The notes under the pieces: model-generated
What the model saw: the letters and a program-made list of their open reading frames with translations, nothing else
Told to the model about the DNA's origin: nothing
Database searches by the model: none
Source: Candidatus Hydrogenedentota bacterium
Lineage (GTDB): Bacteria; UBA8481; J006
NCBI GenBank assembly: GCA_003697085.1
Contig: RFFU01000040.1
Coordinates: 3,133 to 67,132, forward strand
DNA length: 64,000 nt
Direction of reading: 5' to 3'
In this document: positions 18,539-62,631 of the stretch, piece by piece
Layout of the letters: the number at the start of each line of letters is the position of its first letter
Numbering within the stretch: the first letter of the stretch is position 1
Translations under genes and position numbers: made by a program

Positions 18539-18539
18539 G

Positions 18540-24333: not shown

Positions 24334-24340
24334 GGAAAAG

Positions 24341-40066: not shown

Positions 40067-42508
40067 ATGGATTGTGAGACTGGTTTTGTTTCCGGGCACC
40101 GAAGGCGGCGAGAGAAGGTGCGCGTCGTCTTGTTTGCCGGGCTGTGTCTTCTTCTTTTGTGCGCGGCGGCGATGCTTGTGGAAGATCGGGTGGCGGGCGA
40201 GGTTGTTCCGGCGGCGGTAGTCCGGGCGGCGGCGGTAGGCCCGTCGGCCGATGGAGAGGTCATCGTCGTTCCGCGCGACGAAGCCGCCTTGTCGGTGCTC
40301 GAGACGCTCGGGTATTCGATCAAGAGGCGCCTCTCGCCGCTCAACGCCGTTCTGTTGGCGGTTCCGGTGGGAAAGACGACAGAAGAAGCCGTCGCGGAAC
40401 TGGCTGTTCGGGCGGACCTCGTGGACGTAAGGCGGAACCGTCTCTATTCGCGGGCGGTAACTCCGAATGATCCGCAGTTCTCGAATCAATGGCAGTTCGA
40501 TTCGATCGTGGCGGAGCCGGCGTGGGACATCGATACGGGAACGGCTTCGGAGACGATCGCGATCATCGATGACGGAATCGACACGGATCACGTCGATCTG
40601 GCGGCGAGGCTCGTCTTTGTGAAGGGCGCCGATGTCGTCAACAACGATGACGATCCTTCCCAATTCGTCAACATTCACGGAACGGAGGTGGCCGGGATGG
40701 CGGCCGCGATCACGAACAACGGTCAAGATGCCGCCGGGGTGGATTGGAACGCAAAAATCATGCCGATCCAGGTTTTTGCCGATGTCGCGGGATCGAGCGC
40801 AACGAGTGCGGATATTGCCGCAGGAATCATCAAGGCGGTCGAGAATCACGCGAGTGTGATCAATCTTTCCTTGATGGGATTTCTCGATTTTGCTCCGGAC
40901 GATACGATCGAAGATGCGATCGCCTATGCCGTGAACGCCGGTATTCCGGTGGTGGCCGCCGCCGGGAATTTCAACAGTGGCGGGACGACGTGGCCGGAGA
41001 CGGTACCCATCCATCGATTTCCAGGGAGTTCGTTTCTCACGATTTCGGTTGGGGCCACGAACCGTGCGGATTCCTGGGCCAATTTTTCCGCCTACGTTCG
41101 TCCGGACGAAGCATCCTATCAGACGTGGATCAATCCCGGCGGGACCCTTCTCGGAGATTTGGGGATTCAGGAAGGGCAGTTGACGACGCTCGATCTTGTC
41201 GCTCCGGGCGAAAGTGTCGTGACGTTAACGGCGGGTGTTGGCGTGGCGACCGTGAATGGGACCTCGTTTTCGGCTCCTTTGGTTTTCGGAGCCGTGACAC
41301 TGGTGAAGCATATCCGGAGCGAGTATTCGCCGGAGAACCTACGCGAGATTCTCCGGGTCACCGCGCGCGACATCGGGCCGGGAGGGTACGATGCGCCAAC
41401 CGGCGCCGGTGTCCTCGATCTCAACAAACTTCTCGGGACGGCTCTTTATGAATCGCTCTATCCCTTTTCGGACGACACGCGGACGATCCGAGCGGATTCC
41501 TTTTCCGCGGCTGTTCCGGGAGACACCGGCAATGCTCTTTCGGCGGCAAATGGGCGAGTCGGGCGGCGTTCTCTCGAGATCACGGGAAACAACGTTTACA
41601 CGGGATACGACGGCGCTCTGGGAGCGGAGAGCGGGACGATCGAATTCTACGTTTGGTTCGACGCAACTCAACCGAACGATACGGCTTACGTGGTTACTCA
41701 AAAGGGGAATCTGGCGAAAGGGGGGGGGAGCTTGGATCTCATCTATCGTTCGGACGGACATCTGGAGTATCGGTTGGCGGATACGGTGACGCTTGTCAGC
41801 GCCGATACGCTTTTCGCCCAGCGTTGGTACCACGTCGCGATGACGTATGGCGACAGCGGAGCCTTTCTTTATGTGAACGGAGAATCGCAGGCGTCGTCGG
41901 GGGTCACCGGCGGCCCGCCGGTTCAAGACACGGTCTTTTTCGGCGCACCGGGTTCCGTGGGCTCCTCGGCGGTATGCCGAATCGATTCGCTCAGATTTTC
42001 GCGAGGGCAGCGCCTGATCTTTCCGAGCGCTCTGGCGGTGACGGTCTGGAGCCAGAAGGCCACGACCAACGCGCTCGATGCCGTCAGTGTTCGGTGGACG
42101 GCGTTGCGGAACGAGACATCGCCCGTGACAATCTCGATCTATGCCGACGAGAACCGCGAGGGATTCGATGGGATCCCCCTGGCGACGGGGTTGGCGAACG
42201 ATGGTCAGGAGACGGTAAGCCTTGCGGCTCTCGCCTCGACGGGAAAGGAGTATTTTCTCTACGTGACGGCGGAGGATCTTGTTTACGGTAACGAGAGCGT
42301 CTCGGCCTATTCGGACACAGCCTTCAAGGCTTTTACGGCTTTATCGGATTTGTTGACCGCGACTCCGGGGCGGTCGGGAGAGTGCCGGTTGGCCACCGTT
42401 ACCGGCGCGCGGGGAGTGAAGTGGTTGAGATGGTTTCGGGATCGGGCGATGAGCCTTCCCTTCGGCCGTTGGCTCGTCGGTTTTTACTATCGTGTATGGG
42501 GCTGTTGA
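40067..42508 (+). CDS. secreted S8 subtilisin-like serine peptidase with C-terminal LamG/concanavalin-like domain
   Basis: Catalytic triad contexts: AIIDDGIDTDHVDL (Asp), HGTEVAGMAAA (His), VNGTSFSAPLVFGA (Ser). C-terminal laminin-G-like region (IEFYVWFDATQP...LDLIYRSDGHLEYRLAD...WYHVAMTYGDSGAFLYVNGE). Signal peptide present. Confidence 0.85.
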   Translation: MDCETGFVSGHRRRREKVRVVLFAGLCLLLLCAAAMLVEDRVAGEVVPAAVVRAAAVGPSADGEVIVVPRDEAALSVLETLGYSIKRRLSPLNAVLLAVPVGKTTEEAVAELAVRADLVDVRRNRLYSRAVTPNDPQFSNQWQFDSIVAEPAWDIDTGTASETIAIIDDGIDTDHVDLAARLVFVKGADVVNNDDDPSQFVNIHGTEVAGMAAAITNNGQDAAGVDWNAKIMPIQVFADVAGSSATSADIAAGIIKAVENHASVINLSLMGFLDFAPDDTIEDAIAYAVNAGIPVVAAAGNFNSGGTTWPETVPIHRFPGSSFLTISVGATNRADSWANFSAYVRPDEASYQTWINPGGTLLGDLGIQEGQLTTLDLVAPGESVVTLTAGVGVATVNGTSFSAPLVFGAVTLVKHIRSEYSPENLREILRVTARDIGPGGYDAPTGAGVLDLNKLLGTALYESLYPFSDDTRTIRADSFSAAVPGDTGNALSAANGRVGRRSLEITGNNVYTGYDGALGAESGTIEFYVWFDATQPNDTAYVVTQKGNLAKGGGSLDLIYRSDGHLEYRLADTVTLVSADTLFAQRWYHVAMTYGDSGAFLYVNGESQASSGVTGGPPVQDTVFFGAPGSVGSSAVCRIDSLRFSRGQRLIFPSALAVTVWSQKATTNALDAVSVRWTALRNETSPVTISIYADENREGFDGIPLATGLANDGQETVSLAALASTGKEYFLYVTAEDLVYGNESVSAYSDTAFKAFTALSDLLTATPGRSGECRLATVTGARGVKWLRWFRDRAMSLPFGRWLVGFYYRVWGC

Positions 42509-42520: not shown

Positions 42521-43909
42521 GTGAGTAAGAGAGTGCATCGGGACGGGCACGGTTCGTCCGTGTGGCGTGCCGGAAGAGAGATTGTTTACCAGATCTTTCC
42601 GGATCGCTGGAGGCGTTCGAAGAGTTCGCCGGAAGTTCTGCCACGAGGGAGGAGGTGGCGGGGGAGACCGGTGATCGTGACGAGCAACGCCCGGCTTCTC
42701 GGTTCCCGGCGCAACGGCCAGCGCACCTTTTACGGCGGAGACCTGCAGGGAATCACGGATTCGCTGGATTATCTTTCGAGTCTCGGAGTCACGATCCTGT
42801 ATCTGAACCCGATCTTCGAGGGGAGAAGTTGTCACCGATACGACACGGTCGATCATTTGCGGATCGACCCGATGCTGGGAACGCGCGAGGATTTCGAGGT
42901 GCTGTGTCGAGAGGCGAAGAGCCGGGGGATGAAGATCGTTCTGGACGGCGTCTTCAATCACACGTCGCTGGATCACCCCTGGTACCGATCATCGAGCCTG
43001 CGCCGGCGATATTATCTGATGAAGAACGAGACCGAAACTATGACGTGGATGAACGGCGGAGGGTTACCGAAACTGGATACGGAAAATCCGCGGGTGTTGA
43101 GCGCTATCCGGAAAACGATCGAGGCGTGGCCGGAGGCGGACGGCTGGAGGCTGGACGCGGCGCATCTTCTTCCGGAGAGGTGTTTGCGGGAGATCCGCGG
43201 GGCAGCCGGGACGCGGAAGATCGTGATCGAGGATTGGGAACATTCGGCTCATTATTTCCGGAAGGGATTGGCAGATTCCGTCACGAACTTTCTTTTTCGG
43301 GACGCGATGGAGAGGTATTTCATCGAGGATCTGGCTCCAGAGACGTTGGTGGAGCGGCTTCGGGTCTGGATCGAGGGGTATCCTCGAGCGCAACTACCTT
43401 GGGTGTGGAATTTTCTCGACAATCATGACACGGCGCGTCTGTTGGGGAGGGTGGGGCGTGAGCGGTTTTTTCGAGCGGCGGTTTTCCTCTTCACTTTACC
43501 GGGAACGCCGATGGTTTTTCACGGGGACGAGGTCGGATTGGGCGGCGGTGGAGCGCGGAAGAACCACGACGCGGGGCGGCAGGTGATGCCGTGGAACGAG
43601 CGGTGGTGGGATCGGGGTATCTTGGAGCATTTTCGAGCATTGGCGTCTTTCCGGAAGCGGTTTGGACCGGCGACGCGGGGGCGGTTCCGGGTTCTGGCGG
43701 CGGAGAATGGCAGCCGGACGGTAGTGTGGGAGATGGAGTGGGGTGGATATCGAATCTATTCGGCCGTGAATGATGGGTATCGGGGATCGCGGGTTCCAGG
43801 TATGGACGGAAGACGGGTGAGACTGAAACCGGGCGAGTGGATAGTAAGGGGCGAGGATCGAGAGGGGGAGATGCGGTTGGGATCGGAGCAAATTTCCTAC
43901 TCAACGTAA
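42521..43909 (+). CDS. GH13 alpha-amylase-family glycosidase (cytoplasmic type, no signal peptide)
   Basis: VYQIFPDRW, GGDLQGITDSLDYLSSLGVTILYLNPIF, GMKIVLDGVFNHTS (region I), GWRLDAAHLL (region II), WNFLDNHDTARL (region IV). GTG start. Confidence 0.85.
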   Translation: MSKRVHRDGHGSSVWRAGREIVYQIFPDRWRRSKSSPEVLPRGRRWRGRPVIVTSNARLLGSRRNGQRTFYGGDLQGITDSLDYLSSLGVTILYLNPIFEGRSCHRYDTVDHLRIDPMLGTREDFEVLCREAKSRGMKIVLDGVFNHTSLDHPWYRSSSLRRRYYLMKNETETMTWMNGGGLPKLDTENPRVLSAIRKTIEAWPEADGWRLDAAHLLPERCLREIRGAAGTRKIVIEDWEHSAHYFRKGLADSVTNFLFRDAMERYFIEDLAPETLVERLRVWIEGYPRAQLPWVWNFLDNHDTARLLGRVGRERFFRAAVFLFTLPGTPMVFHGDEVGLGGGGARKNHDAGRQVMPWNERWWDRGILEHFRALASFRKRFGPATRGRFRVLAAENGSRTVVWEMEWGGYRIYSAVNDGYRGSRVPGMDGRRVRLKPGEWIVRGEDREGEMRLGSEQISYST

Positions 43910-44063
43910 GTTTTTCCACGGTTTCCGCGACTTGCGGGTGGGCGTGGAAGTGATAGAATTAAGGCGTAACGATACGAAAGAGAAGAATCGGAAAGAAAAA
44001 AGGAACGCAGGAGGAAAAGGAAGCGGTGGTACTGGCGCGACCGTTGAAGAGGGACCGGATGCT

Positions 44064-47000
44064 GTGCGTCCTTTCGATCAGGCTGTGAAGAGACCGTCAC
44101 ACGGAAAGCGGCGGAGGGAGATCGAGCGGGGGCGGTCTTTCGTTTCGATAGGGCTTTTACTTTTCGGAGGGGGCTTGCTTTTTCAGATTTTCGCGCCCGT
44201 TTATGCGACGAATCCGGTGACGGTGCCGGGAGATTTCAACGGCTGGAACAATTCCTCGGGAAACAAGATGACGTACATCAACACTTGGAACGGAAGGGAT
44301 GTCTTTGCGGTACTGACGACGATCGACTCGGTCGCGTATGGAACCGGTCACCAATACAAGATTTACGTCGGCGATTGGGCGACGCCTTCCGGGGGGTGGT
44401 TGGGTGGCGGAACGTCCTCCGGGTTGAAACTTCCGCAGGTTGTCAATCAACTGGATTCTCAACCCGTAACACCCACCATTACCATCGATATCGACACTTC
44501 GGTTTATCACGATACACCGGGAATGTTTTATATTCAGTTTCGTGTTAAGCCTTCAGGTGGGGGGCTGGGAACGATCAACGATGTGGTTTTCAAGAGGGCG
44601 ACCGTCCAAGCCCCGGGAACGTATAACGGGTGGGATACGGACGGCGCAGCCACGGAGATGGCGAAGATTGGGTTGACGGACACGTGGGTGAAATACGTCT
44701 CGATAAGCGCGGTCGGCACCGTGCAATTCAAGATCATTACCGGAAACTCGTGGGACTGGTACCACTGGGGCTGGTCGAACGCGAACACGCTTTCGGTTCC
44801 GGTGGACACGACGGCATTCGAGGGACCAAGTTTCGGGGCGGGGCAGCCGCAGAATATCCAGGTGAACGTCACGGAAACCGGTGTCTATCGCCTGACATTC
44901 AACACGGTGACGGATCAGATCACGTTTACGAAGGTCACGGAACCGTTGATCAGCCAAGTGCAGACGTCGGGAGCGTCGGCGACGGACGATTTCATCGAGT
45001 TGTACAATCCCACGCCGGATTCGATCGAGATGAGCAACTATTTTCTGGCGCAGAGAGCCTCTTCGGAGGAGACGGTCACAGTCATCCATCGATTCACATC
45101 GGACAGCATTCCTCCTCACGGATATTACCTTTGGGCGCACGCGACGGGTTATACGGGCGAGACACCAGCCAACCAGACTTCCTTGGTCAACGTTACGAAT
45201 GACAATTTGATTTTGCTGAAGAAGAACGGCGACACGACGAGTGAGTATTTGGCGGAGGTGGTGGATGCCGTCGGATACGGTGCCTGGGCGGCACCGACAT
45301 CACTGGCTGCGCAGGAATCGGGCTATTGGCGCTCGGCGTTTTACGAAGGCAGCGGATTGGCGTCCAATCCCGCGGCGAATGGGAGTTTGATGCGGTTGCC
45401 GGGGGGGATCGGCGGGGAGCATTCGGACAGTCAAGACAACGCCAACGATTTCATAACGCTTTCCGCGTCGATGCCGAGAAACAAGACAGGTTACAGGACT
45501 CCTTACACTTTTTCGGACACGGTTTCCCCTTCCTCAGTCGTTTCGGGAGAGACCTTTCTCTTAACGATGGTGGTGAAGGACTGGTTGGGGGAGACGGTGG
45601 GTCTCTATTCGGATACCGCGGATCTGAGTGTTTCGGCGGGAACGATCAATCCGAAGAAGACACAAGCCTTTTCAGCGGGAACACGGAGCGAATCGGCCAG
45701 CATCACCGGTGCGCCGGCGACCGTGACGATCACGACGACGGCTCCGGACGGCTCCTTTCAAGGAACGGTGGATATCACGGTGACGCCGGATCTTGTCAAC
45801 GGATGGCATATACCAAAGAACAACGAGCCGGATACGGCGGTGGATGCGGACAGTTTTATGAGGACGGCAACGAATACGGAAGGGGGGACGAACAACGATA
45901 CGATGTGGCCGCGACGACGGACCACGGACAATCCGATTCTTTTGTGGGTGGGGAAGGCTCCTGTGGATCCGGACTCTCCGCAGAGCGCGGCTTTTCGATA
46001 TCAGACGGCTACGACGGCGTGGTCGGCGTGGCAGAATTTCGACGACACGGTGATCGTGGGGGGGAATCTCTACTATCGTTTTACGTTGAACCAGGGCGCA
46101 ACGACGGACTGGGATTTCCGGGATACGGTGGCGTACTATTTCCGCCTGGAGCAGGTCGGCAAGGACACGACCTACATTTACGGGAGCGGCGTGGCGGACG
46201 ATGTCACGACGAGCCAAAAGACACCGGTCGAGGCGACCGCGCAGGCGAGCCCGTTTATCTACAAGATTCGTTCGACCCGTCCCTTGCCGCCGGATACCGC
46301 GATCTCACCGACCGACGGCCAGACGGATGTCGGGACGAGGAAACCGACGTTCACCTGGAAGGAGTCGTTCGACATCGACACGGCGGCGGGGGACACGATC
46401 GTCGATTACTATTTCGAGATTGCGACGAAGCCGGATATGAGTGACAGCGCCTCGCTGGGGTTGTCGAAGTGGTTGGGTTCGGGGAACACCTCGTACACGA
46501 TCGATTCACCGCTTCAAGCCTTCACGTGGTACTACTGGAGGGTTCGCGCCAAGGATTCCGGGAGTCAGGTCAGCGACTATTCCGAGACCTTCCAGTTCAA
46601 GATCAACGCGATCATCGCCGTGGACGGGGACATATCGGACTGGATTCTGGGAGAGACGTTCCCGACGATCAACGCGGGGAATATGAGTCATTCGACCTCG
46701 ATGGGGATCACGTGGGATTCCAACAGTATCTATGTGATGTGGGACAAGAAGGAGTCGCTTCACGATTCGGACGTGCTTTTCATTTACATCGATGCGGTTC
46801 CGGGGGGGAGCAACACGTCGATCAATTGGAGCGGAACGCACAATCTCCCGTTCGCGGCCGACACGGCGTTTCATATGGAACCGAAAGGACTGAAGTTCGA
46901 GTATCGGTACTGGAACGGGGGGGCGTGGGTCTGGAAGGGGGCGATCGGACAAAAGGCCCAGAATTACGCCGGCGGGATCGCGGAAGTCAGTTTCCCGTGG

Positions 47001-50000
47001 TCGTTGATTGGTTCGCCGTCCCGATTCAAGATTCTCGTCTATGCAATGAACAACGCCTCGTCAAACCATAACATTTACTCGATCATTCCGGTCCAGAATC
47101 GAACCGGCCCTTCTTCCCAAAAACTGGTGAATTACTTCGAGTTCCCGTCCTCGCAATCGACGGTTCCGAACACGCCGAAGTATTATAAGACGACGGTTGT
47201 GTGGCCGGCGGCCTCCAAAGGGGTGACTTCCTTCACGCCCTTGATCGACGGGGTGAAGGACCCCGGCTGGGGCGACGTACCGACGGCCACGAGCGCCTCG
47301 TACCGCCAGCCGTTCCCGGGGCCGGCGGACACTCCGATCGAGGTACCCCCCGGCGGAATTTGCCGCGACGTCTATGTGACAAACGACGCGCAGTGGCTCT
47401 ATATCGGGTGGGAAGCCTTCAGTGATCCGTACCAATTGGAGACGGATAACACCGAGCAGAATGCCGATTATGGCTTCTTCGTGACGGACACGGGCGTTTG
47501 GGGATCGCCGGTGGATCCTTGGCGATGGTACGATGCGAACCGAAACTTCAATGCGACCCACCGTACGACGGGATACGGCGTCAACGTTGTTGCAAATGGG
47601 ACGGTCGGGTTTCAGGAATCGAACTTTTCGAGTGCCTTCAAGTACACGACGGTTGATGGCGTCAACTGGGAGAACGGAGTGACGATGACGATCGACGAGG
47701 ACTGGTCCGCCGACTTCAACGATTCCGGCCAGGGGTGGGGAGAACTGAGAATACCGTTATCGGATATTCGGGCGGACATCGGGCCGGGAGACACGATCGC
47801 CATCGTTCATTTCGGGCGTCATTCCGCTGCAAAGCCTGGGGTGAACGATGTCACGCCGTTCGACGGAGCGGCGGCGAGCAACTGGGCGGACAACAATGCC
47901 GTCCACGAGATGGGGGACACGGCGGTTTTCGTCTATGTGATTCAGCCGGGGGTGATCGACGCCTTTCACATACCCGATTCCGCTCCCGTACTGGGCCGTG
48001 GTTTGATGCGGCAGCCGGCGTCTCCCAATACCTCCGACAACATCGAACTCTTCCTCCGGGCCAATCCCGAGGGCGTGGCGACGACGGTCGATCTTATCTA
48101 TTCGACGGACACGTGGGCGAGCAGTACGAGTACCTCGATGGCGGTGGCCTACGCCAGTGGAGGAGCGGATTTCTGGTCTGTGACGCTTCCCTCGATCCCC
48201 GCCGGCACGATCTTGCGTTATTACTTCAAGGCGCAGTCGGATGTGATGACGACGTACGTCTACGGTTATGACACGCAATCGTACACGACTTCGGTTCAAG
48301 CGACGGCGCAAGCGAACGCATTCTCCGTTTTGCTCGGGAACACTCCCCCGACCACTCCTACCGAGGTGACACTTTTGCCGACGTCGCCTTCGACAAACGA
48401 CACACTGGTGGCAACCGCCTCCGGCGCTTCCGACTCAGACGTGGATGTCGGGGTGGACACGCTGATCTATCGTTTCCGCTGGTACAAGGGGGAGGTGTTC
48501 CAGTTCGAGACGTTCGATTCGGTGCCGCCTTATACCTCGCAAGTCGTTCCGGCTTCCACTGCCTCGGGCGAGACGTGGTTCGTGAAGGTTGCCGCGGGGG
48601 ACGGGGAAGACACATCGAGCGAGATCACGAGCGCGGTACGCCTGATCTCGACGTTGGCCGTCTGGCCCGCTCCCTTGCACGACCGTGTCAACTCCGCGCG
48701 GATCGTCACCAGTGTCAGCGGAGGGAAGCAGGTGAGAGAGTGGGTTTGGAAGGACAAGGACGGCGACGTCCGCTCGGGCCGAAGTGATCTCGACTTGAAG
48801 GAAGTGCGGATTCAAGCGGATACCGATTACATCTATTTCCTCTTACGGCTCGGGACCTTCTCGATCGACAAACCATTTATCGCGATCGCGGTCGATACGA
48901 GCCTGGATGCTTCAGGGGGAACGGAGATGGGGGATCAGACGGCGCTTCTTCTCGGAGGCGGTTTTGCCACGCCCGCGCTGAAATTCGAACGAATGATCGC
49001 GATTCACGCGGTTTCGAGCGGGAGTCTTGCGGTGGAATTGGATACAGGGGCGGGGGTTCCTGATTGGGGAACGCCCCGTTCCGGCTACCTTTTGAATGTA
49101 CGGCGCGAAGCGGGAACGATCGAGGTGCGGTTGGCCCGCTCGGATCTTCTGCTTAAAGGAATCTGTACGGCTCGGTTTGCCGTGGCGACCTTCGACAACG
49201 TCGTGGGGTCGGCGGCGGCGATCGATGCTACGAAGGATTACAGCGGCAACGATGCGTTCGACGCCGTCTCAATGCCCGCGTTTTCGTCGAACGATGCGGA
49301 CTTTTCGATGTCAGCCTGGGATGAAGATCTCTCCGACAACGACCTCGATTACTGGTTCCAACTTTCCTTTGCGGACACGATTCTCGAGGCGAACGATTCC
49401 CCCTCGAGTACGCCCGGAATGCTTCCGGCAACGGGAGACAGCGAGACGACCAACCCTCCGTTTTTCAGTTGGGGGCAGCCGGATGATTTGGGGACGAACG
49501 ATACGGTCATTGCGTACATCTTCGAGTTGGGAGACTCGGGGGCGGACTTCGAGCAAGCCGTAACGTACAGGGTGATAACGAGCGCTCGGAATTACACTCC
49601 GCCGACCTTTCTCACGGACAGCACCTACCATTCGTGGCTTGTCCGAGCCGTGGATCGAAGCGGGCAGATCGGAACGGCGGTCGTCCAGACCTATTTCCAA
49701 GAGAATGCCACTTCGATTCTTGTCACGGCTCCCGATGACAAGCAGAACCTCAATAACCTTGGAGCGAGGAATGGAGACGAAGTTGCGGTGACCTCGATCA
49801 TTTGGACCTGGCCGGCGGCGATTCATTCGGAAAGTGCTCCGATCGATTCGTACATCATCGAGATCGATACCTCCACGGCGTTCACGAAACCGATCCTTGT
49901 GGATACGCTGCCCGGTTCGCAGAGGAGTTACACGTATGCGGGAGCGGTGCGAGGCGAGGTCTATTACGCCAGACTCAAAGCGGTTGATACGGGAGGTTTC

Positions 50001-53000
50001 ACCGGCACATCGTCGCCTTCGGACGGAATCTATGTCAGCCGGAGGTACGCCAACGGTGACTCGACCGATTGGGCCTCGGCGGGCGGAATGGCTCCGGACA
50101 CCATCAACACGCCGGCGGCTCCGTCGTGGGAAGGAATCTGGATGGATTCGGTGACGGACAACCGAACGGACGACGCCGGAAACGCGTCCCGAGATCTGAA
50201 GGAGTTCCACGTGACCGCCGATTCCTTCAACCTTTATCTCCTAATGACTTTTCGAGATTTCACGAACGATGCCATCATCCAGGTCGCGGTTTCGACGGAC
50301 AATTCCTCCGACAAGCGTGTTTACGAAGGGCGAAGCGTTTATGCGGAGGATTCCTATACGTCGGTGGAGGGAGCCTGGGAACGAATGATACGGGTGAGGA
50401 CGGGAAACGACGATGTTTACACCTTAAACACGGCCTTTGCCGGCCAAGCGGCGAAATATACCGAGAATGTGTCGCAGAGAATGGTGGAGGTGGCGGTGCC
50501 GCTTTCGCGGTTGGGAGGTCGGGAGAAGATCTTGGGAAACACGGTAGGGTTCACGGTGGCGACCTTCATTAATTCAGCGGGAAGCGTCGGGCAGAACGGA
50601 GCGAACAATTCGAACATCGTCGATGTAATCACGACGAACAACGGCACGGGGACGTGGGGCGAGGTGAGCGATCGGGACGTCGATTTCCTCTTGAATGTGA
50701 CGTTCGATGGCGAAGGGAGGGTTACGGCGATCTCGGCCGATACCGTCTCGAGCACGATTCCTGACGAACCGACGCAGACGGGAGCCGCTGCTTCTTCAAA
50801 CTTTGATCTCATCTTCTACAATCTCTTCGTCGATCGCTTTCTTTCTGGGCGGAGTGACAATCCTCCTTCCGATCTGGATATGACCGGCGGCGATCTCGAG
50901 GGTATCGCGGATTCTTTCACCTATTTCAACAAGATGGGGGTCACCTGCGTGTATCTTTCGCCGATCATGGATTTCGGCGGCGGGGTTTGGGGATACAATC
51001 AGAGCGATCTGTATCGTCTCCAATGGAGTTTTGGTTCGCCGAGTGCGCCGCGGAATGGAACGCTGGATTTCGTCGATTTCGTCAAACGCGCCCGCCATCA
51101 CAATCTCAAAGTGGGTTTCGACTGGGTTCCGGGACAGGTATATAACGGGCGAACCGTTTCGAATCATCCGGAACTCTTCGAGGGAAAGCGATTCGGCGGC
51201 GAGGCGGTGCGGCAGGAATCGGTCGAGGCGCGGCAGTTCTTCTCGGACCATTCGCTTTTCTGGGCGGCGCTGGGGTCGTCGGCGTATCGTGTCGATAATC
51301 CCAAATTCTACCCAGATGATTACACGACCGGTTTGCCTTTCTTTGCTTACACGCGTGAGTTTTGGGACAAGTACGTTCCCGACCTGTACACCTTTGGAGA
51401 GGTGCCGGACAACGAGGGAGTGGTGGGGGCGTTTTGTAAGGACGGGCAGAGGCTCACGGGGATGCTTGACTTTCCGATGATGTTCGGATTGCAGCAGTGG
51501 GCCGCCGGAAACAAGAATGCCAGCGATTTCAAGACACAGGATATCGAAGGAAAGGAGCCGAGTTACCAAGGAGCCGTGAAGGCGTTGATGGCGACTCTTA
51601 TCGAAAATCACGATCATAGTCGGACTTATCATCAAGTCGGCGGAGGTCCGGATCTGGACGGATCGAAGGATCCGGCGATCATGGCGAACATTCAGTTGGC
51701 GTATCTCTTTGCCGGCGCGCACAGTCACAATCCGGTGATCTGGTACGGCGACGAGGTCCCCATTACGGGATGGAAGGATTACACCTATCCGGGGTTCACC
51801 TATACGACGAGCACGAGCAAATTCGGGAATACCAGGGCCTTCCCGTGGGATTTCCCGGACGGGACGTGGTTGCGAGACAATTTTCGGGCGATCTTCACCG
51901 CACGGAACATCTTCCGCGCGCTTCGGACGGACAATGCCGGGCGCTTTTTCGATATTCCGGATCTCAATGTGATGACGATGCAGAGATTCACTGGGGGAGC
52001 GGGGGATTACGAGAAGGTGGTGGCGGTGATCAACAACGCCAATGTGGACAAGAATGTTACGATTGCCACGGGCGACAGCAACAAGTTCTTCCGCGATTGG
52101 CTCAACCCCGCCGTGACGGGGACCACGGATGCTTCCGGAAATCTCGTCGGCTGGAATGTGCCGTCGAACTGGGGGTTTTATCTTGTGCGCGGGGGATTCG
52201 GACAGAGGCAGTTGCACGTGGATGCGGGAATGAGCGGTGTGATCGTCTCGATAGACAATACTTCTTCCTGGACTTGTGTGACGGGGGACGACGGGAGTTG
52301 CACGATCACGCGGATTCTCGTCAACGACGAAGGCAATGGGAACTTTAATTCGTGGGATCGCACCTTGCGGGCCTGGAAGAAAGGGTACAAGGAGTACGTC
52401 GGGACGTACACCTTCGGTTCCTCGAACGGAGTGGCGGCGGTTGCCGATGACACGACGATTACGTTGCAAGCGGATGATGGCGTTCCCCCGGCGGCTCCGC
52501 AGGGCCTTTCGGCCCAGCCGCGGGACCGAGCCGCGTTCCTGACCTGGGAGAAGAACAATGAAAGCGATTTCGAGTCGTACAAGGTCTATCGATCCAAAAC
52601 GCCCAACGATCCCTCACCGACCTTGATCGCCGAAACACTTCGTCCGTTCCTTTACGATAACGATCTCGATAACTTTCTGACCAACGGCGATACCTATTAT
52701 TACAAGGTTCGCGCGATGGACTGGAACGAGAACTTGTCCGGGTTTTCGAACGAGGTGGCGGTGGTTCCGGGAAAGTACAACGTGAAGTTTTATTTGGAAC
52801 TTGAAGGTTCGGGACTGAGCGGAGTGCAATACGCCATGATTGCAGGGAACCATGACGCCCTCGGCGCCTGGACTCCAGTTCAGATGACACAGGTCGATAC
52901 CACGCTCTGGATGATAGAGACTGAGATGGATCCGACCTCGATGCCGGAGTACAAATATGTTGTTCAAACGGCTTCCGGGCAGATATGGGAGAACGATTTC

Positions 53001-54347
53001 GGTAACAACAAAATCTTCACGCAGAACCGCCTCGTGGACATTGTCGATCACACGGGAAATCGCGAAGCGATCTTCACGAACAAGTGGAACATTGCCGGGG
53101 ACGCGGCGCCGCGGCAGGTGAAGAATGTCACCGCGGTGAGCGCGGATTCAGGGGTAAAGGTGGGATGGAGTCCGAATCCCGAGCCGGACGTGGTTCGGTA
53201 TGTTATCCAGCGGGCCACGAACCCCGCCGGACCGTTTACCTATTTGGGTGACGCCGATGCTTCTCAGAACGTTTTTTGGGATACGAATGTGACGTTGGGA
53301 TTGACGTATTACTATCAGGTTCGAGCCGTCGATTGGTGGAACTCGGGCGGGGATTTCTCCGCCAACGCGTCCGTGACGGTCTCTCCAGCCGACCTTGTCG
53401 CCCCGGCGGCTCCCACCGGCCTCACGCTCAATCCCGCTGGAACGTCCTCGATCAAACTCACGTGGTTGGCAAATTCCGAAGGGGATGTTTCTGGGTACGA
53501 TGTGTATCGGAGTACCGATCCGACGGTTCCGATTGCCCCGGAAAACAAGGTGAACGCGAGTCGGATCTTGCATTCGTTGTCACCGAGCTACACGGATACG
53601 GGGGTGACGGCGGGGCAGCGATATTACTACCGCGTCGTTGCCATCGACAATGCGAACAACCAATCCTCGGGGAGCGACACGGCTTCCGCGTATCTTGTCG
53701 CGGCGACCTTCGTTCTTGATTTGGGCAATGTGTCGCCGTCTTCGGTCGAAATCTCGGGGAATGCGGCGACAATGGGCCCGAGTCCGTCGCGGGTTAAACT
53801 TTCGAGCATCGGAGGAAGCCAGTGGTCCGTCACATTGGGAGTCTTTGCCGGCGTGCAACTGACGTATAAGTACAGCTACAACAACGGAACGGTCGAGGAA
53901 GCAAATTTTCAGACGAATTCGCTCAAGAGGGAGTGGACCCCCTCGGAGCAAGCCAGCGTAACTCGGCAGGAAGATTGGGAGGAGGAGCCCGCCGGAGTAA
54001 GATCGCCGGCCGGTTATCCTGGAAATAAAAAGGCATATCTCAGCTGGACTGGGGATTCCAGCGTGGATGTGTACGCCTACGTCATCGATCGCGCATCGGC
54101 CTCCGATACCACTTTTCATAGACTGACTCCTTCTCCGACGACCAATACGTATTACACCGATTCCAATCTGACGAACGGAGAGACCTACTATTACGTGATT
54201 CGTTCGGTCGATGCGGGGACGTTTCAGTTGGAGAGTCCGCCGTCGAAGATGCTGGTAGTGATGCCGAATGAGCCGATTTGGGTACGGTTTCGCGTCGAGC
54301 GGCCGGATGCGGATCGGATTCGAAGGCCGAAGGTGGTTTGGAGATGA
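44064..54347 (+). CDS. giant multidomain secreted protein (about 3420 aa from the probable start): N-terminal CBM-like modules, lamin-tail domain, multiple fibronectin-III domains, an internal alpha-amylase-superfamily (GH13-like) catalytic module and CBM20-like starch-binding modules
   Basis: Single uninterrupted 10.4-kb ORF (43932..54347). Probable start GTG 44064 or 44085, giving the signal peptide KRPSHGKRRREIERGRSFVSIGLLLFGGGLLFQIFAPVYA. Modules: GDFNGWNN / GTYNGWDTDG CBM-like at 44200-44800. Lamin-tail domain (SGASATDDFIELYNPTPDSIEMSNYFL) around 44950-45300. Fn3-like units (e.g. PTFTWKES...WYYWRVRAKDSGSQVSDYS). GH13-like core about 50790-52200 (LIFYNLFVDRF, GGDLEGIADSFTYFNKMGVTCVYLSPI, YTFGEVPDN, LIENHDHSRTY). 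CBM20-like module (KFYLELEGSGLSGVQYAMIAGNHDALGAWTPVQMTQVD...YKYVVQTASGQIWENDFGNNKIF) about 52780-53080. Confidence 0.85.
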   Translation: MRPFDQAVKRPSHGKRRREIERGRSFVSIGLLLFGGGLLFQIFAPVYATNPVTVPGDFNGWNNSSGNKMTYINTWNGRDVFAVLTTIDSVAYGTGHQYKIYVGDWATPSGGWLGGGTSSGLKLPQVVNQLDSQPVTPTITIDIDTSVYHDTPGMFYIQFRVKPSGGGLGTINDVVFKRATVQAPGTYNGWDTDGAATEMAKIGLTDTWVKYVSISAVGTVQFKIITGNSWDWYHWGWSNANTLSVPVDTTAFEGPSFGAGQPQNIQVNVTETGVYRLTFNTVTDQITFTKVTEPLISQVQTSGASATDDFIELYNPTPDSIEMSNYFLAQRASSEETVTVIHRFTSDSIPPHGYYLWAHATGYTGETPANQTSLVNVTNDNLILLKKNGDTTSEYLAEVVDAVGYGAWAAPTSLAAQESGYWRSAFYEGSGLASNPAANGSLMRLPGGIGGEHSDSQDNANDFITLSASMPRNKTGYRTPYTFSDTVSPSSVVSGETFLLTMVVKDWLGETVGLYSDTADLSVSAGTINPKKTQAFSAGTRSESASITGAPATVTITTTAPDGSFQGTVDITVTPDLVNGWHIPKNNEPDTAVDADSFMRTATNTEGGTNNDTMWPRRRTTDNPILLWVGKAPVDPDSPQSAAFRYQTATTAWSAWQNFDDTVIVGGNLYYRFTLNQGATTDWDFRDTVAYYFRLEQVGKDTTYIYGSGVADDVTTSQKTPVEATAQASPFIYKIRSTRPLPPDTAISPTDGQTDVGTRKPTFTWKESFDIDTAAGDTIVDYYFEIATKPDMSDSASLGLSKWLGSGNTSYTIDSPLQAFTWYYWRVRAKDSGSQVSDYSETFQFKINAIIAVDGDISDWILGETFPTINAGNMSHSTSMGITWDSNSIYVMWDKKESLHDSDVLFIYIDAVPGGSNTSINWSGTHNLPFAADTAFHMEPKGLKFEYRYWNGGAWVWKGAIGQKAQNYAGGIAEVSFPWSLIGSPSRFKILVYAMNNASSNHNIYSIIPVQNRTGPSSQKLVNYFEFPSSQSTVPNTPKYYKTTVVWPAASKGVTSFTPLIDGVKDPGWGDVPTATSASYRQPFPGPADTPIEVPPGGICRDVYVTNDAQWLYIGWEAFSDPYQLETDNTEQNADYGFFVTDTGVWGSPVDPWRWYDANRNFNATHRTTGYGVNVVANGTVGFQESNFSSAFKYTTVDGVNWENGVTMTIDEDWSADFNDSGQGWGELRIPLSDIRADIGPGDTIAIVHFGRHSAAKPGVNDVTPFDGAAASNWADNNAVHEMGDTAVFVYVIQPGVIDAFHIPDSAPVLGRGLMRQPASPNTSDNIELFLRANPEGVATTVDLIYSTDTWASSTSTSMAVAYASGGADFWSVTLPSIPAGTILRYYFKAQSDVMTTYVYGYDTQSYTTSVQATAQANAFSVLLGNTPPTTPTEVTLLPTSPSTNDTLVATASGASDSDVDVGVDTLIYRFRWYKGEVFQFETFDSVPPYTSQVVPASTASGETWFVKVAAGDGEDTSSEITSAVRLISTLAVWPAPLHDRVNSARIVTSVSGGKQVREWVWKDKDGDVRSGRSDLDLKEVRIQADTDYIYFLLRLGTFSIDKPFIAIAVDTSLDASGGTEMGDQTALLLGGGFATPALKFERMIAIHAVSSGSLAVELDTGAGVPDWGTPRSGYLLNVRREAGTIEVRLARSDLLLKGICTARFAVATFDNVVGSAAAIDATKDYSGNDAFDAVSMPAFSSNDADFSMSAWDEDLSDNDLDYWFQLSFADTILEANDSPSSTPGMLPATGDSETTNPPFFSWGQPDDLGTNDTVIAYIFELGDSGADFEQAVTYRVITSARNYTPPTFLTDSTYHSWLVRAVDRSGQIGTAVVQTYFQENATSILVTAPDDKQNLNNLGARNGDEVAVTSIIWTWPAAIHSESAPIDSYIIEIDTSTAFTKPILVDTLPGSQRSYTYAGAVRGEVYYARLKAVDTGGFTGTSSPSDGIYVSRRYANGDSTDWASAGGMAPDTINTPAAPSWEGIWMDSVTDNRTDDAGNASRDLKEFHVTADSFNLYLLMTFRDFTNDAIIQVAVSTDNSSDKRVYEGRSVYAEDSYTSVEGAWERMIRVRTGNDDVYTLNTAFAGQAAKYTENVSQRMVEVAVPLSRLGGREKILGNTVGFTVATFINSAGSVGQNGANNSNIVDVITTNNGTGTWGEVSDRDVDFLLNVTFDGEGRVTAISADTVSSTIPDEPTQTGAAASSNFDLIFYNLFVDRFLSGRSDNPPSDLDMTGGDLEGIADSFTYFNKMGVTCVYLSPIMDFGGGVWGYNQSDLYRLQWSFGSPSAPRNGTLDFVDFVKRARHHNLKVGFDWVPGQVYNGRTVSNHPELFEGKRFGGEAVRQESVEARQFFSDHSLFWAALGSSAYRVDNPKFYPDDYTTGLPFFAYTREFWDKYVPDLYTFGEVPDNEGVVGAFCKDGQRLTGMLDFPMMFGLQQWAAGNKNASDFKTQDIEGKEPSYQGAVKALMATLIENHDHSRTYHQVGGGPDLDGSKDPAIMANIQLAYLFAGAHSHNPVIWYGDEVPITGWKDYTYPGFTYTTSTSKFGNTRAFPWDFPDGTWLRDNFRAIFTARNIFRALRTDNAGRFFDIPDLNVMTMQRFTGGAGDYEKVVAVINNANVDKNVTIATGDSNKFFRDWLNPAVTGTTDASGNLVGWNVPSNWGFYLVRGGFGQRQLHVDAGMSGVIVSIDNTSSWTCVTGDDGSCTITRILVNDEGNGNFNSWDRTLRAWKKGYKEYVGTYTFGSSNGVAAVADDTTITLQADDGVPPAAPQGLSAQPRDRAAFLTWEKNNESDFESYKVYRSKTPNDPSPTLIAETLRPFLYDNDLDNFLTNGDTYYYKVRAMDWNENLSGFSNEVAVVPGKYNVKFYLELEGSGLSGVQYAMIAGNHDALGAWTPVQMTQVDTTLWMIETEMDPTSMPEYKYVVQTASGQIWENDFGNNKIFTQNRLVDIVDHTGNREAIFTNKWNIAGDAAPRQVKNVTAVSADSGVKVGWSPNPEPDVVRYVIQRATNPAGPFTYLGDADASQNVFWDTNVTLGLTYYYQVRAVDWWNSGGDFSANASVTVSPADLVAPAAPTGLTLNPAGTSSIKLTWLANSEGDVSGYDVYRSTDPTVPIAPENKVNASRILHSLSPSYTDTGVTAGQRYYYRVVAIDNANNQSSGSDTASAYLVAATFVLDLGNVSPSSVEISGNAATMGPSPSRVKLSSIGGSQWSVTLGVFAGVQLTYKYSYNNGTVEEANFQTNSLKREWTPSEQASVTRQEDWEEEPAGVRSPAGYPGNKKAYLSWTGDSSVDVYAYVIDRASASDTTFHRLTPSPTTNTYYTDSNLTNGETYYYVIRSVDAGTFQLESPPSKMLVVMPNEPIWVRFRVERPDADRIRRPKVVWR

Positions 54348-55435: not shown

Positions 55436-55506
55436 AGGAAAACACCGGATGCGAGCGTAGCGCACCGAGGGGAAACGTGGAAGTCAATGGAATCCCGTGG
55501 AAATCT

Positions 55507-55580
55507 GTCCCCAACGGGATTCGAACCCGTGTCTTCACCGTGAAAGGGTGATGTCCTAGGCCTGCCTAGACGATGGGGAC
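55507..55580 (-). tRNA. tRNA-Glu (anticodon TTC)
   Basis: The reverse complement GTCCCCATCGTCTAGGCAGGCCTAGGACATCACCCTTTCACGGTGAAGACACGGGTTCGAATCCCGTTGGGGAC folds as a cloverleaf: 7-bp acceptor stem, anticodon loop CTTTCAC, T-arm GGGTTCGAATCCC. CCA is not encoded. Confidence 0.85.
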
Positions 55581-55754: not shown

Positions 55755-55831
<77 letters not shown>

Positions 55832-56011: not shown

Positions 56012-57373
56012 TTATACTCCACTGTAATCGTAGGACGAGCCTCCGATGAATTCCCGCAACAAGGCGTTTTTAGGGATCACCGTTTCGTCTTCCCAAGAAG
56101 AGAGGGAGTCAAGCAATTTCGAGACTCGCGCCGCACGCCGGGCCGCATCGGCGTGTTCCGTATTATCGGTATACTCCTGTGTCCATTGGCGGAAAAGATT
56201 GCCTACGCGCGCGGCCCAGAGGGGAAGTTCATAGGGAAGAGAACTGTTAATGACATAATCGGCGGAGTTTGCGTGCGGTACGATGTAGCGAAGTTCCGAT
56301 CGGCGCACGTAGTGCCAATGTTCCAGCGTTTGTTTCGGCGCGACGTTCCTGTCGCGACTGTCTCGGACGATCCTACGGATCAGTCGGATGTCCGTCCAGC
56401 GAATATAGCCTCCATCGGGGGAGCGGCACTGAAGGAGCGGCTCGATGTAAAGACGGCATTTCGCCTCGTTCGGTATGCCCGCCGTTACCGGATCGTGAAG
56501 GCCGTGAAGAGAGTCGATCAAGAGGATTTCACCGGGACCGATCCGGACGGGGGGAGCGGTTCCTTCGCGTTTCCCCGTCTTGAAATTGAAGAACGGTGGA
56601 CGAACCTCCTTCCCTTCGTAAAGCGCTCGCAGGTCTCTATTGAGCAATTCGAGGTCGATCGCTTCCGGGGTTTCATAGTCATAATCTCCGTGTTCGTCCT
56701 TTGGGTGAAGTTCCAGATCAAGAAAATAATTGTCCACGTGAAACGGCACGAAGACGAACCCCTCATTTCGAAGATGTTCGGCGACTTTGATTGTGCTGGT
56801 GGTCTTACCCGAGGAGCTCGGGCCCGCCACGATCACGAAGCGAATCTCGTCCCGCCGCCGTAGAATCCGATCCGCGGCGCGGGCAATGTCCAGTTGATAG
56901 GCCTCCTCGCATTCCCGTACCAGTTCCCGGAAAGAGCCGTCGGTGACCCGAGCATTAAGTTGTTCGACGGTGAAGACGTTGTGATCGATCGCCCAGTTGA
57001 GCGACTTCCAGACCTTGCGCCAAGGAATGCCGTCGCCACGGGCGGGGCTGTCGCCAAGAGTTTCGCGCTCGGCACGGTTCCGCGCTCGTTCGTTCCGATA
57101 AAGGATGAAGGCCTTGGCCGTTTGTGCGTGGCCCTGTTCGATCAAGACCTTCTCGATCGCATCTTGAATCTGCTCGACGTGCGGCGGATCGGCAATCTCG
57201 GGTTTCTTCAGAAGATATCGGATGACCCGCGTCGTGAGATATTCGGCGGTGCGCCGGTCGCGCCCTCCGACGGCGATCGCGGCACGATAGATCGCGTTCG
57301 TGATTCGCACGTCCGTGAAGGGAACGACGGATCCGTCTCGCTTGACAACGTGAGTGAACGGGGTGGTTTCCAT
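56012..57373 (-). CDS. uridine-kinase/P-loop nucleoside kinase-like protein with N-terminal ATP-cone domain
   Basis: N-terminus HVVKRDGSVVPFTDVRITNAIYRAA (ATP-cone pattern). Walker A FVIVAGPSSSGKTTSTIKVAEHL and a uridine-kinase-like downstream region. 453 aa. Confidence 0.7.
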   Translation of the reverse strand: METTPFTHVVKRDGSVVPFTDVRITNAIYRAAIAVGGRDRRTAEYLTTRVIRYLLKKPEIADPPHVEQIQDAIEKVLIEQGHAQTAKAFILYRNERARNRAERETLGDSPARGDGIPWRKVWKSLNWAIDHNVFTVEQLNARVTDGSFRELVRECEEAYQLDIARAADRILRRRDEIRFVIVAGPSSSGKTTSTIKVAEHLRNEGFVFVPFHVDNYFLDLELHPKDEHGDYDYETPEAIDLELLNRDLRALYEGKEVRPPFFNFKTGKREGTAPPVRIGPGEILLIDSLHGLHDPVTAGIPNEAKCRLYIEPLLQCRSPDGGYIRWTDIRLIRRIVRDSRDRNVAPKQTLEHWHYVRRSELRYIVPHANSADYVINSSLPYELPLWAARVGNLFRQWTQEYTDNTEHADAARRAARVSKLLDSLSSWEDETVIPKNALLREFIGGSSYDYSGV

Positions 57374-58450: not shown

Positions 58451-59008
58451 TCAAATTTCGGAGGTTCTCCCGCCCGACAACATCTTCGAGTCCCGCTCTT
58501 CCTTCCTTGGAACGCGCCATTCCTTTCCGGAAAGGTAGCCGAGGATGACATCGGCGTCGAGTCGATCGTTGCGATCGAGCGAGCGGCGGATCGTCAACTC
58601 GCGCACGACGATTCCGGGACCGGACGTTTCCAGAGACGCCAGATATGTGAAGAGACGATCGGGTTCGAGGTCGCGGAGGGAAAGCGAAATCCGAGATTCC
58701 CCCTCCGTTTCCGGAAGGCTGCTGACGGATCGGATCGAGATGCCGCTTGCTGTTCCCTTATCCTGAACAAGTTTGACCGCGGCGGGCGTCTCCGCGATTC
58801 TCGCGTGGATCCGGTTCACTTCGGACCGGAGTCGAACATATTCCTTCGCGAAACGTTCGATCTTTTCCGCTTGCGCGCGCAACGCACGCACGCGAGCGGA
58901 ATTCGCCGCGAGGCGGTCCGAGCCGGCCAGAAAGGCAACGGCGAGGAGGACAAATCCCAGAATCCGAAGAACCGGAGAGGCGAGAAATTCGCGAAAAGAT
59001 TCGTTCAT
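58451..59008 (-). CDS. gspM: type II secretion system protein M-like
   Basis: MNESFREFLASPVLRILGFVLLAVAFLAGSDRL... has bitopic topology and about 185 aa. The ATG overlaps the gspL TGA (ATGA). Position is after gspL. ORF 58451..59158 has an upstream extension. Confidence 0.55.
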   Translation of the reverse strand: MNESFREFLASPVLRILGFVLLAVAFLAGSDRLAANSARVRALRAQAEKIERFAKEYVRLRSEVNRIHARIAETPAAVKLVQDKGTASGISIRSVSSLPETEGESRISLSLRDLEPDRLFTYLASLETSGPGIVVRELTIRRSLDRNDRLDADVILGYLSGKEWRVPRKEERDSKMLSGGRTSEI

Positions 59009-60306: not shown

Positions 60307-60399
60307 TGCCGCTGCTCCTTGCTTCTCTTCGCCCGCATTTCCGTCCGCCGATCATCTCCGCCTTTCGGCCGACGCCGGTTAGTGTAGCGGAAAATGAGG

Positions 60400-60480
60400 T
60401 TGACGCATCCGGAAAAGGCAAAAGGAAGAAGGCAAAAGGAAGAAAGCAAAAGGCAAAAGGGAGAAGGGAAAGGAGGCGTT
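60400..60480 (+). repeat. GGCAAAAGG-type purine-rich tandem repeat in the gspK-gspL spacer (third locus of the family)
   Basis: ggaaaaggcaaaaggaagaaggcaaaaggaagaaagcaaaaggcaaaagggagaagggaaaggagg. It is purine-rich on the plus strand although the flanking genes are on the minus strand. Confidence 0.6.
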
Positions 60481-60508
60481 CCGAGGTCAAGTTTTCCGCG
60501 GCGAGCGT

Positions 60509-62519: not shown

Positions 62520-62631
62520 CCTTCAGCTCCCCCGACCAGGTGTGGGTTTCCGCTCGGGGAAGGCTTGGCACGATCCGGCAAAAAGCGCGCGTTTTTCGCC
62601 ATGCACCGGAGAAGGGGAAGCGTCGGGAACA

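Follow-up and report, generated by a model that had tools for sequence, protein, structure and literature searches.

A giant multimodular protein with a divergent GH13 core and a coupled partner gene in a Candidatus Hydrogenedentota bacterium

Results

An uninterrupted 10.4-kb gene for a predicted secreted protein

The 64,000-nucleotide stretch analysed here (the window), which belongs to contig RFFU01000040.1 of a Candidatus Hydrogenedentota metagenome-assembled genome (MAG), carries on its plus strand a single 10.4-kb open reading frame (ORF; 43932..54347) for a giant multimodular protein, which is likely an extracellular enzyme of glycoside hydrolase family GH13 degrading alpha-glucan. An initial interpretation made from the nucleotide letters alone (the sequence-only reading) had described one frame of 3471 codons, and the ORF listing and the translation, which is devoid of internal stops when read from the first TTG, bore this out. 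Under the base composition of the window, such a run of stop-free codons would occur by chance with a probability of ~1e-59. The accompanying claim of a genome with 60% GC or more had to be dropped, as the ORF has a GC content of 57.0% (70% at third codon positions) and the window one of 57.6%. NCBI entry RMH58484.1 corresponds to the giant ORF (100% identity over the 550 residues compared) and is labelled "hypothetical protein" of a Candidatus Hydrogenedentota MAG, with 3469 amino acids (aa) and a start at 43938; a homologue is named "alpha-amylase family glycosyl hydrolase" in the same database.

Translation probably begins at an internal GTG, either that at 44064 or that at 44085, and the chain opens with a signal peptide that we identified by eye rather than with a predictor. 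It reads ...LLFQIFAPVYA before the mature end TNP and lacks a lipobox Cys. Signal peptides also head the homologues P0004 and P0006, and that of P0004 (MRVF...SSARA, cleaved before INNPL) precedes the same GxFNGW unit as in the giant. In agreement with the secreted protein proposed earlier, the giant would thus be exported to the extracellular space, and the computed mature chain has ~3,379 aa, 368.5 kDa, a pI of 4.6 and six Cys in all.

Since the sequence stems from a MAG, the N-terminal ~780 aa are poorly conserved and one related scaffold (L001) contains a gap of Ns, one could argue that the long ORF arose during assembly or binning, through a chimeric join or a frameshift-masked fusion of several genes. 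Several observations make this extremely improbable. First, collinear homologues of 2,611 to >4,526 aa are found in at least 15 independent assemblies (NCBI, JGI, ENA, Logan), and on the basis of such giants recurring with the same partner gene (see below) we dismissed the artefact. Second, independent gene calls yield products of 3452 and 4390 aa with the same Pfam content. Third, GC content and GC skew are uniform along the ORF. Separately, we considered a frameshift that masks an even longer protein and rejected it, as the ORF that follows starts with an ATG and a signal peptide of its own and the same boundary recurs in seven related loci.

A GH13 core with an altered active site

The GH13-like core that the sequence-only reading had placed inside the protein was readily recovered: PF00128 matches from aa 2299 with 63.1 bits against a cutoff of 22 (Pfam calls were counted here and below against gathering scores), and the quoted motifs GGDLEGI, FDWVPGQ and LIENHDHSR lie at aa 2319, 2396 and 2556. 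At E values up to 0.01 the core matches 67 GH13 sequences of the PDB, and a profile search gave 163 PDB matches at <=1e-8. The conserved regions I-II-III-IV follow one another without permutation (aa 2396, 2451, 2486 and 2556), and GH13 is the sole catalytic domain both in the giant and in two larger homologues that were scanned. GH13 enzymes have four invariant residues, all of which the giant carries: the region-II pair of Arg and nucleophile Asp (R2453 and D2455, in YRVDNPKF), the acid/base Glu of region III (E2490, in FGEVP) and the Asp of region IV (D2561, in ENHDH). Together with H2560 they align in register with TK-PUL (5ot1), Anoxybacillus amylase (5a2a) and neopullulanase (1j0h). As Asp2455, Glu2490 and Asp2561 are intact and occupy canonical positions, the objection that the core lacks the Asp/Glu/Asp triad fails.

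By contrast, the set of subsite -1 His residues is incomplete: region I (FDWVPGQ, with D2397) has Gln2402, region II has Phe2459 and only His2560 of region IV is kept. The absence of the usual NH from region I had been noted from the sequence, and we found the change from His to Gln to be a conserved family signature rather than a one-off degeneration. In an alignment of 16 family members (27-52% identity, two of them fragments without some motifs), the catalytic Arg, Asp, Glu and Asp and the His of region IV never vary among the members that cover these motifs. Region I reads DW[VI]PGQ in the closer members and DWPGTA in a distant sub-clade (P0014, P0016, P0018), and region II reads ...KF[YWED] in every member covering it, whereas the next-best ordinary GH13 outgroup sequences keep NH and (K/R)H.

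The loss of two active-site His, the fact that >85% of the protein consists of non-catalytic beta-sandwich modules and the presence of a lamin-tail domain (LTD) and many Fn3/Ig domains, as is typical of adhesins, could indicate that the GH13 module is catalytically dead and serves for binding only, which would make the giant an adhesin at the cell surface or an S-layer-like scaffold with affinity for alpha-glucans or for other cells. We judge this to be quite improbable, as invariant Arg, Asp, Glu, Asp and region-IV His even in very divergent members are not expected of a pseudoenzyme, and as both substitutions are fixed (Phe in all members, Gln in the closer ones) with no drift. The GH13 core is apparently functional despite the two His changes.

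Loss of these His residues lowers the typicality of the core as a GH13 enzyme, not its clan membership: by its motifs and profile matches the core belongs to GH13 (clan GH-H) and fits none of the curated functional subfamilies. No NCBIfam equivalog came near its cutoff. Of the 13 NCBIfam matches, 11 are to alpha-glucan-enzyme equivalogs, and all of these 11 are partial and confined to the N-terminal barrel, the best scoring 36.6 against 568 (MalZ) and cyclomaltodextrinase 28 against 540. The best PDB profile matches (E 2.5e-28 to 1e-22) are the neopullulanase/cyclomaltodextrinase/maltogenic amylase group (1j0h, 1sma, 1ea9, TVAII 1bvz, TK-PUL 5ot1), along with the Anoxybacillus enzyme 5a2a and AmyP (5h06); we take the first five to be GH13_20 and the last two to be 'intermediate' GH13_36/37 amylases. 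With the neopullulanase group the giant shares the motif order, the catalytic Arg/Asp, Glu and His/Asp, the motifs GGD(L/F)xG(I/L) and Y(L)SPI and domain C, and its region II is without the TAA-type His, as in TK-PUL and neopullulanase. It differs from them in the region-I Gln in place of His, in a very short domain B (boundaries of domains B and C were read off the sequence), in conserved sequence region V (CSR-V), which is RFGGExV instead of MPKLN or LPDLx, in a CBM9/CBM74-like rather than CBM34 module (CBM, carbohydrate-binding module) N-terminal to the barrel, and in being 5-7 times longer. These comparisons suggest that the core probably belongs to a GH13 clade not described before, whose closest neighbour is the neopullulanase/GH13_36 group.

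Region I of the giant, DWVPxQ(I)Y, is nearly identical to that of the GH70 family, which we take to be ADWVPDQ, and both the giant (as predicted) and GH70 proteins, which include the non-permuted GtfC/GtfD, are extracellular, very large, multidomain alpha-glucan enzymes. The neopullulanase, TVAII and CGTase group, the nearest solved relatives matched by profile, includes transglycosylating enzymes, and two modules of the giant, M4 and M8, are similar to the domain at the N-terminus of a cycloalternan-forming enzyme. Moreover, the change from His to Gln in motif I, seen in DWVPGQ(I/V)Y, is the sole one among seven conserved GH13 residues that characterises active GH70 enzymes, and is a hallmark of glucansucrases and 4,6-alpha-glucanotransferases (PMC4919382). 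On these grounds the core could be mainly a transglycosylase, i.e. an alpha-glucanotransferase or a branching, cyclising or alternating-linkage enzyme that remodels or builds an extracellular alpha-glucan such as a matrix or storage polymer, with the CBMs holding the product. Yet motifs II-IV are of the GH13 rather than the GH70 type (RVDN, GEVP, ENHD) and the barrel is not circularly permuted; the GH70 profile PF02324 gave no match to the giant at E <=0.1, and no glucan-binding YG repeats were noticed on reading the protein, no dedicated search having been made. Furthermore, the locus looks catabolic, with an importer and a cytoplasmic GH13, and a change from His to Gln alone does not fix transfer over hydrolysis. 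We therefore regard a predominantly transglycosylating core as rather unlikely.

A rare family of collinear giants

A full HMMER scan with the GH13 core over 1.84 billion cluster representatives returned 14 proteins at E <1e-30, mostly giants, beyond which scores fall steadily, with ordinary GH13s appearing from ~1e-18 and weaker. Family members include P0003 (4361 aa, 52% identity to the core), P0004 (3160 aa, 51%), P0006 (3350 aa, 49%), P0008 (3851 aa, 44%), P0009 (4125 aa, 42%), P0010 (3606 aa, 38%) and P0011 (4409 aa, 37%), and just outside the 14 stand P0015 (2748 aa, 32%, 6.6e-30) and P0016 (3299 aa, 27%, 2.8e-21). A scan of one genome per species located 12 loci, which lie in Ca. Hydrogenedentes/Hydrogenedentota MAGs, several further MAGs, one bin labelled Dependentiae, one Ignavibacteria MAG and one Elusimicrobia MAG. 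Three further metagenome contigs also carry giant and partner. The family is rare, a pattern scan of JGI metagenomes yielding only five loci. A word-indexed search of a 5.8-billion-protein database with the GH13 core retrieved one fragment (P0001), the family coming to light only in the full HMMER scan, exact sequence look-up gave no record of the giant or the upstream amylase, and a literature search on the motifs and on Hydrogenedentes amylases found no description of the family.

Homologues are collinear with the giant over aa ~780-3471, with the three most distant aligning only from ~aa 1830. The universal core of the family spans aa ~1830-3455, and the N-terminal ~780 aa are variable. Module M13 stands directly before the GH13 core in the giant and in all 15 other members scanned, some of which are truncated within M13. 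In L001 (ENA ERZ28564009 scaffold_43887), which holds the one homologue retrieved by the word-indexed search, a run of Ns at ~1300-1430 splits the gene into two called genes, an example of how giant genes become fragmented in databases.

The giant is coupled to a partner gene

The start of the gene immediately downstream overlaps the stop codon of the giant by 4 nt (ATGA), and throughout the Hydrogenedentota clade the overlap is ATGA or GTGA, as in the window. Pfam and PDB searches with the 363-aa partner protein recognise only its central Fn3 domain. A homologue of this partner follows the giant in every related locus for which downstream sequence is available (L003-L014, L020-L022). In-frame fusions of the giant with two partner modules occur in L012 (Ignavibacteria), L013 (Elusimicrobia), L014 and P0011, and the loci L012-L014 carry additional, separate partner copies. 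The giants end in P-[IV]-W-[VI]-R-F-R-V plus a basic tail, or in V-x-V-x-F-[RK]-N-COOH in other lineages, and in fused forms this C-terminal strand continues into the partner module. The conservation of collinear giants and the adjacency or fusion of the partner show that the two genes form what, on comparative grounds, appears to be a unit under joint selection. We also entertained the idea that the C-terminal strand of the giant provides a missing first strand of the CBM-like domain of the partner, and downgraded it, because in the fused forms VWVHF is followed by a first strand that belongs to the partner module itself.

Modules of the giant

Modules without a Pfam call were delimited from the family alignment and then examined singly, using alignments for structure prediction that were built from substrings of the protein-search matches (Table 1). 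Internal repeats were found by BLAST of 120-aa windows of the giant against itself; the uncut protein gave none. In all, roughly two dozen modules, presumed sugar binders and spacers, surround the GH13 core. Every module named in the sequence-only reading was recovered: the LTD (DDFIELYNPTPDS at aa 352) scores above the gathering score of PF00932, the many Fn3 units correspond to five copies with 66.1 bits against a cutoff of 25, and the CBM20-like module (YKYVVQTASG at aa 3007) has 34.2 bits against 23.3. The two proposed N-terminal G.FNGW units were both located, as GDFNGW at aa 100 and GTYNGW at aa 229, the second deviating from FNGW and matching X25 only weakly. Most of the long stretches previously said to match nothing resolve into CBM9/CBM74-like and Ig-like modules, leaving M9, aa 520-619 and N-terminal unit 1 without a label.

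Four modules (M6, M7, M10 and M13) are CBM9/CBM74-like beta-sandwiches whose fold resembles CBM9 (1i82) and CBM74 (Sas6, 7uwu). Profile searches of PDB sequences with M13, M10 and M7 gave no relatives, and Pfam yielded no match for M7 alone, nothing meaningful via its homologues and none for the M13 region in the full-length scan. The fold call for M7 is tentative, because its model is of low confidence (pLDDT, the predicted local distance difference test, 57.5) and the call rests on agreement with the match list of M13. The Ig-like module M8, beyond its likeness to Listeria Lmo2446, also weakly matches Alpha-amylase_N (PF02903, E 0.066). As anticipated, no C-terminal anchor of a known kind was found: Pfam and NCBIfam scans of the giant detected no type IX secretion C-terminal domain (T9SS CTD), SLH, LPXTG, PEP-CTERM or MYXO-CTERM, and the NF045522 match covers an Fn3 region and is far under its cutoff.

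Table 1. Features of the giant gene, its partner and the surrounding locus (window positions).
Feature	Position	Strand	Evidence or remark
Start and Sec signal peptide	44064..44207	+	basic n-region, hydrophobic core FVSIGLLLFGGGLLFQIF, cleavage VYA/TNP
N-terminal CBM-like unit 1 (GDFNGW)	44208..44576	+	putative, motif only; no Pfam match
N-terminal CBM-like unit 2 (GTYNGW)	44595..44936	+	weak pullulanase X25 match (PF22058, E 7.7e-4), below cutoff
LTD, aa 339-436	44946..45239	+	PF00932, 40.8-43.7 bits vs cutoff 34.3
M4, Ig-like beta-sandwich, aa 620-782	45789..46277	+	paralogue of M8, hhalign 96.9%
Ig_Rha78A_N-type Ig/Fn3-like domain, aa 799-891	46326..46604	+	Pfam 39.6 vs 27.4; repeat at aa 1840-1913
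M6, beta-sandwich, aa 893-1090	46608..47201	+	paralogue of M7, hhalign 92%
M7, probable CBM9/CBM74-like beta-sandwich	47214..47951	+	low-confidence structure model
M8, Ig-like, aa 1338-1472	47943..48347	+	N-terminal domain of Listeria Lmo2446 cycloalternan-forming enzyme (5f7u/4kmq), E 5e-7
M9, conserved beta-rich unit of ~110 aa (ASGxxDSD...FxWYKN)	48339..48671	+	family alignment
M10, CBM9/CBM74-like beta-sandwich, aa 1580-1828	48669..49415	+	paralogue of M13, hhalign 98.5%
Ig_Rha78A_N-like domain, then Fn3	49419..50036	+	self-comparison, Pfam
M13, CBM9/CBM74/glucodextranase-domain-like beta-sandwich	50037..50756	+	directly N-terminal to GH13 core
GH13 core: (beta/alpha)8 barrel, very short domain B, domain C	50799..52196	+	PF00128; motifs
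Region I	51120-51137	+	D2397, Q2402
Region II nucleophile	51294-51296	+	D2455
Region III acid/base	51399-51401	+	E2490
Region IV His-Asp	51609-51614	+	H2560, D2561
CarboxypepD_reg-like beta-sandwich, aa 2757-2825	52200..52406	+	by alignment to L012 orthologue, PF13620 E 5.5e-12
Fn3	52479..52766	+	Pfam, self-comparison
CBM20 starch-binding module, aa 2968-3030	52773..53096	+	PF00686, 34.2-37.9 bits vs 23.3
Two Fn3 domains	53109..53696	+	Pfam, self-comparison
Second CBM20-like module, aa 3250-3352	53679..53987	+	L012 orthologue PF00686 23.5 bits; L011 weak; second stretch also seen in Pfam scan of the giant
Fn3	53994..54266	+	Pfam, self-comparison
Conserved C-terminal strand P-I-W-V-R-F-R-V and basic tail	54267..54344	+	alignment of homologues
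Partner gene, 363 aa	54344-55435	+	signal peptide, putative CBM-like beta-sandwich, Fn3, small C-terminal domain
Two ABC (ATP-binding cassette) permeases	31895-34077	+	
Lipoprotein-type solute-binding protein	34074-35489	+	
608-aa protein, signal-peptide-like N-terminus	35413-37239	+	no Pfam match; ends ...FMKAEMWF, as outer-membrane beta-barrels
Secreted CBM48/CBM20 protein	37277-39484	+	
Secreted S8 subtilase with LamG-like domain	40067-42508	+	syntenic in L005 (320-2476)
GH13 enzyme, 462 aa, canonical NH and H motifs	42521-43909	+	syntenic in L004, L005
Type II secretion cluster (GspG-, J-, K-, M-like; N-methylation motifs)	58451-63782	-	4-9 kb downstream of giant

The surrounding locus

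The gene content upstream and downstream (Table 1) places the giant in what is, by predicted function, an alpha-glucan utilisation locus. The 462-aa GH13 enzyme encoded just upstream is probably cytoplasmic, since a signal peptide is absent. From its C-terminal end, the 608-aa protein could form a maltoporin-like channel and belong to a new family, and the S8 subtilase might process the giant. The type II secretion cluster is a candidate route for the giant across the outer membrane.

Elsewhere in the window, a 642-aa secreted protein without Pfam match (29614-31542, plus strand) ends in a hydrophobic helix and an Arg-rich tail (GGLFLFFGVFLAMAARRRRKEG) that is reminiscent of C-terminal sorting signals of the exosortase type but shows no obvious PEP motif. 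A low-GC island at 22001-27000 (GC 0.47 at 22-24 kb versus ~0.58 elsewhere) encodes a DUF4915 protein (22557-23780) and a DUF4277 protein (24212-25063) and is perhaps mobile or horizontally acquired. A flagellar export and regulation block (10438-21068, plus strand) comprises FlhB-like, FlhA (FHIPEP), FlhF (SRP54-type GTPase), a MinD/ParA-like ATPase and FapA, and indicates a motile organism; the FlhB-like label derives from the neighbouring gene in a matching Logan contig, and the FlhA sequence is identical in Logan read set SRR7905022. On the minus strand, a 453-aa fusion of an ATP-cone with a phosphoribulokinase/uridine kinase (56012-57373) represents an unusual regulatory fusion, and genes for tRNA-Glu (55506-55580) and tRNA-Pro (55755-55831) lie just upstream of it on the same strand.

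Discussion

On the basis of the intact catalytic residues, the module content and the locus, we consider it likely that the giant is a Sec-exported extracellular protein of ~370 kDa whose sole catalytic module is a divergent, active GH13 retaining glycosidase that degrades alpha-glucan, with starch or glycogen as the most likely substrate. Export would proceed via Sec, and passage over the outer membrane by type II secretion is a guess. The binding modules (two CBM20, four CBM9/CBM74-like, two Ig-like of the Lmo2446 N-terminal type and the X25-like N-terminal units) would anchor the enzyme to alpha-glucan in insoluble or polymeric form, be it starch granules, glycogen, pullulan or the like, with the Fn3/Ig spacers providing reach. 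M13, GH13, domain C and the CarboxypepD_reg-like unit would together cleave, and possibly transfer, alpha-1,4 and/or alpha-1,6 glucosidic bonds by a retaining mechanism in which Asp2455 acts as nucleophile, Glu2490 as acid/base and Asp2561 with His2560 as stabilisers, and in which Gln2402 substitutes for the region-I His as in GH70. Maltooligosaccharides could then enter via the putative outer-membrane barrel and the ABC importer (lipoprotein solute-binding protein and two permeases), and the signal-less GH13 neighbour would complete their breakdown in the cytoplasm. The 363-aa partner, presumably co-translated, would be an accessory binding or assembly subunit that is probably bound at the C-terminal strand of the giant.

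Several points weigh against this proposal. Of the three His that usually line subsite -1, two have given way to other residues, to Gln in region I and to Phe in region II. The domain B/CSR-V segment RFGGExV is unlike that of any characterised subfamily, so the specificity for substrate and product is unreadable from the sequence. Characterised GH13 enzymes share little sequence identity with the giant, and all NCBIfam equivalog scores are far below cutoff. The structure model of M7 is of low confidence and the giant has no recognised signal for retention at the cell surface. Finally, because the CBM9-like fold is also seen in non-starch binders and in haem and DOMON proteins, alpha-glucan binding by M6, M7, M10 and M13 can only be presumed.

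In itself, a large CBM-rich GH13 protein in a starch locus is not surprising. In function the giant resembles multimodular extracellular GH13 amylases and pullulanases. The same logic, in which a GH13 enzyme attacks granular starch with the aid of several starch-binding modules, one of them a large CBM9-like sandwich, is seen in the resistant-starch amylases and the amylosome of gut Firmicutes and Bifidobacteria (Ruminococcus bromii Sas6 with CBM26 and CBM74; CBM74-bearing GH13 enzymes), and the CBM74 core is itself CBM9-like (10.1101/2022.11.20.514607). Unlike the amylosome proteins, the giant is without dockerin or cohesin and without detectable sequence membership in CBM74, it gathers all modules on one chain of ~3,400 aa whereas theirs is a multi-protein system, it occurs in Hydrogenedentota, Ignavibacteria and Elusimicrobia, and it has a dedicated, conserved partner gene. 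The C-terminal domains of Arthrobacter globiformis glucodextranase (1ulv) provide another point of comparison, the catalytic domain there being GH15 rather than GH13, sequence identity 17% and the function of that C-terminal domain itself only partly known. What sets the giant apart is the 2,700-aa collinear scaffold in members of the Hydrogenedentota type, of which the last ~1,600 aa are common to all phyla found, along with the active-site signature in regions I, II and V, the obligatory CBM9/CBM74-like module on the barrel and the coupled partner.

A more far-reaching possibility, which we hold to be doubtful, is that the giant and its partner(s) constitute an undescribed one-polypeptide amylosome, i.e. 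a surface fibre built via the C-terminal strand (up to ~100 nm long, by a rough estimate from module number), which in other phyla runs on covalently into one to four partner modules, with a core that, bearing the GH70-type Gln, has an uncatalogued transfer or cleavage specificity and forms a GH13 subfamily of its own. If true, it would imply a new GH13 subfamily with new chemistry.

For the likelier extracellular alpha-glucan-degrading enzyme, several implications follow. The "hypothetical" label at NCBI means that routine pipelines miss giant multimodular carbohydrate-active enzymes. The four CBM9/CBM74-like modules and the partner are candidate binders of granular starch for work on resistant starch and enzyme engineering. 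The family also represents a natural active-site experiment, in which two of the three subsite -1 His are exchanged and the catalytic quartet is kept, and its characterisation could define a new GH13 subfamily and inform the evolution of GH13 and GH70. As Hydrogenedentota and the other carrier phyla are almost wholly uncultivated, the giant locus provides evidence, at the level of predicted genes, for a life on particulate starch or glycogen.

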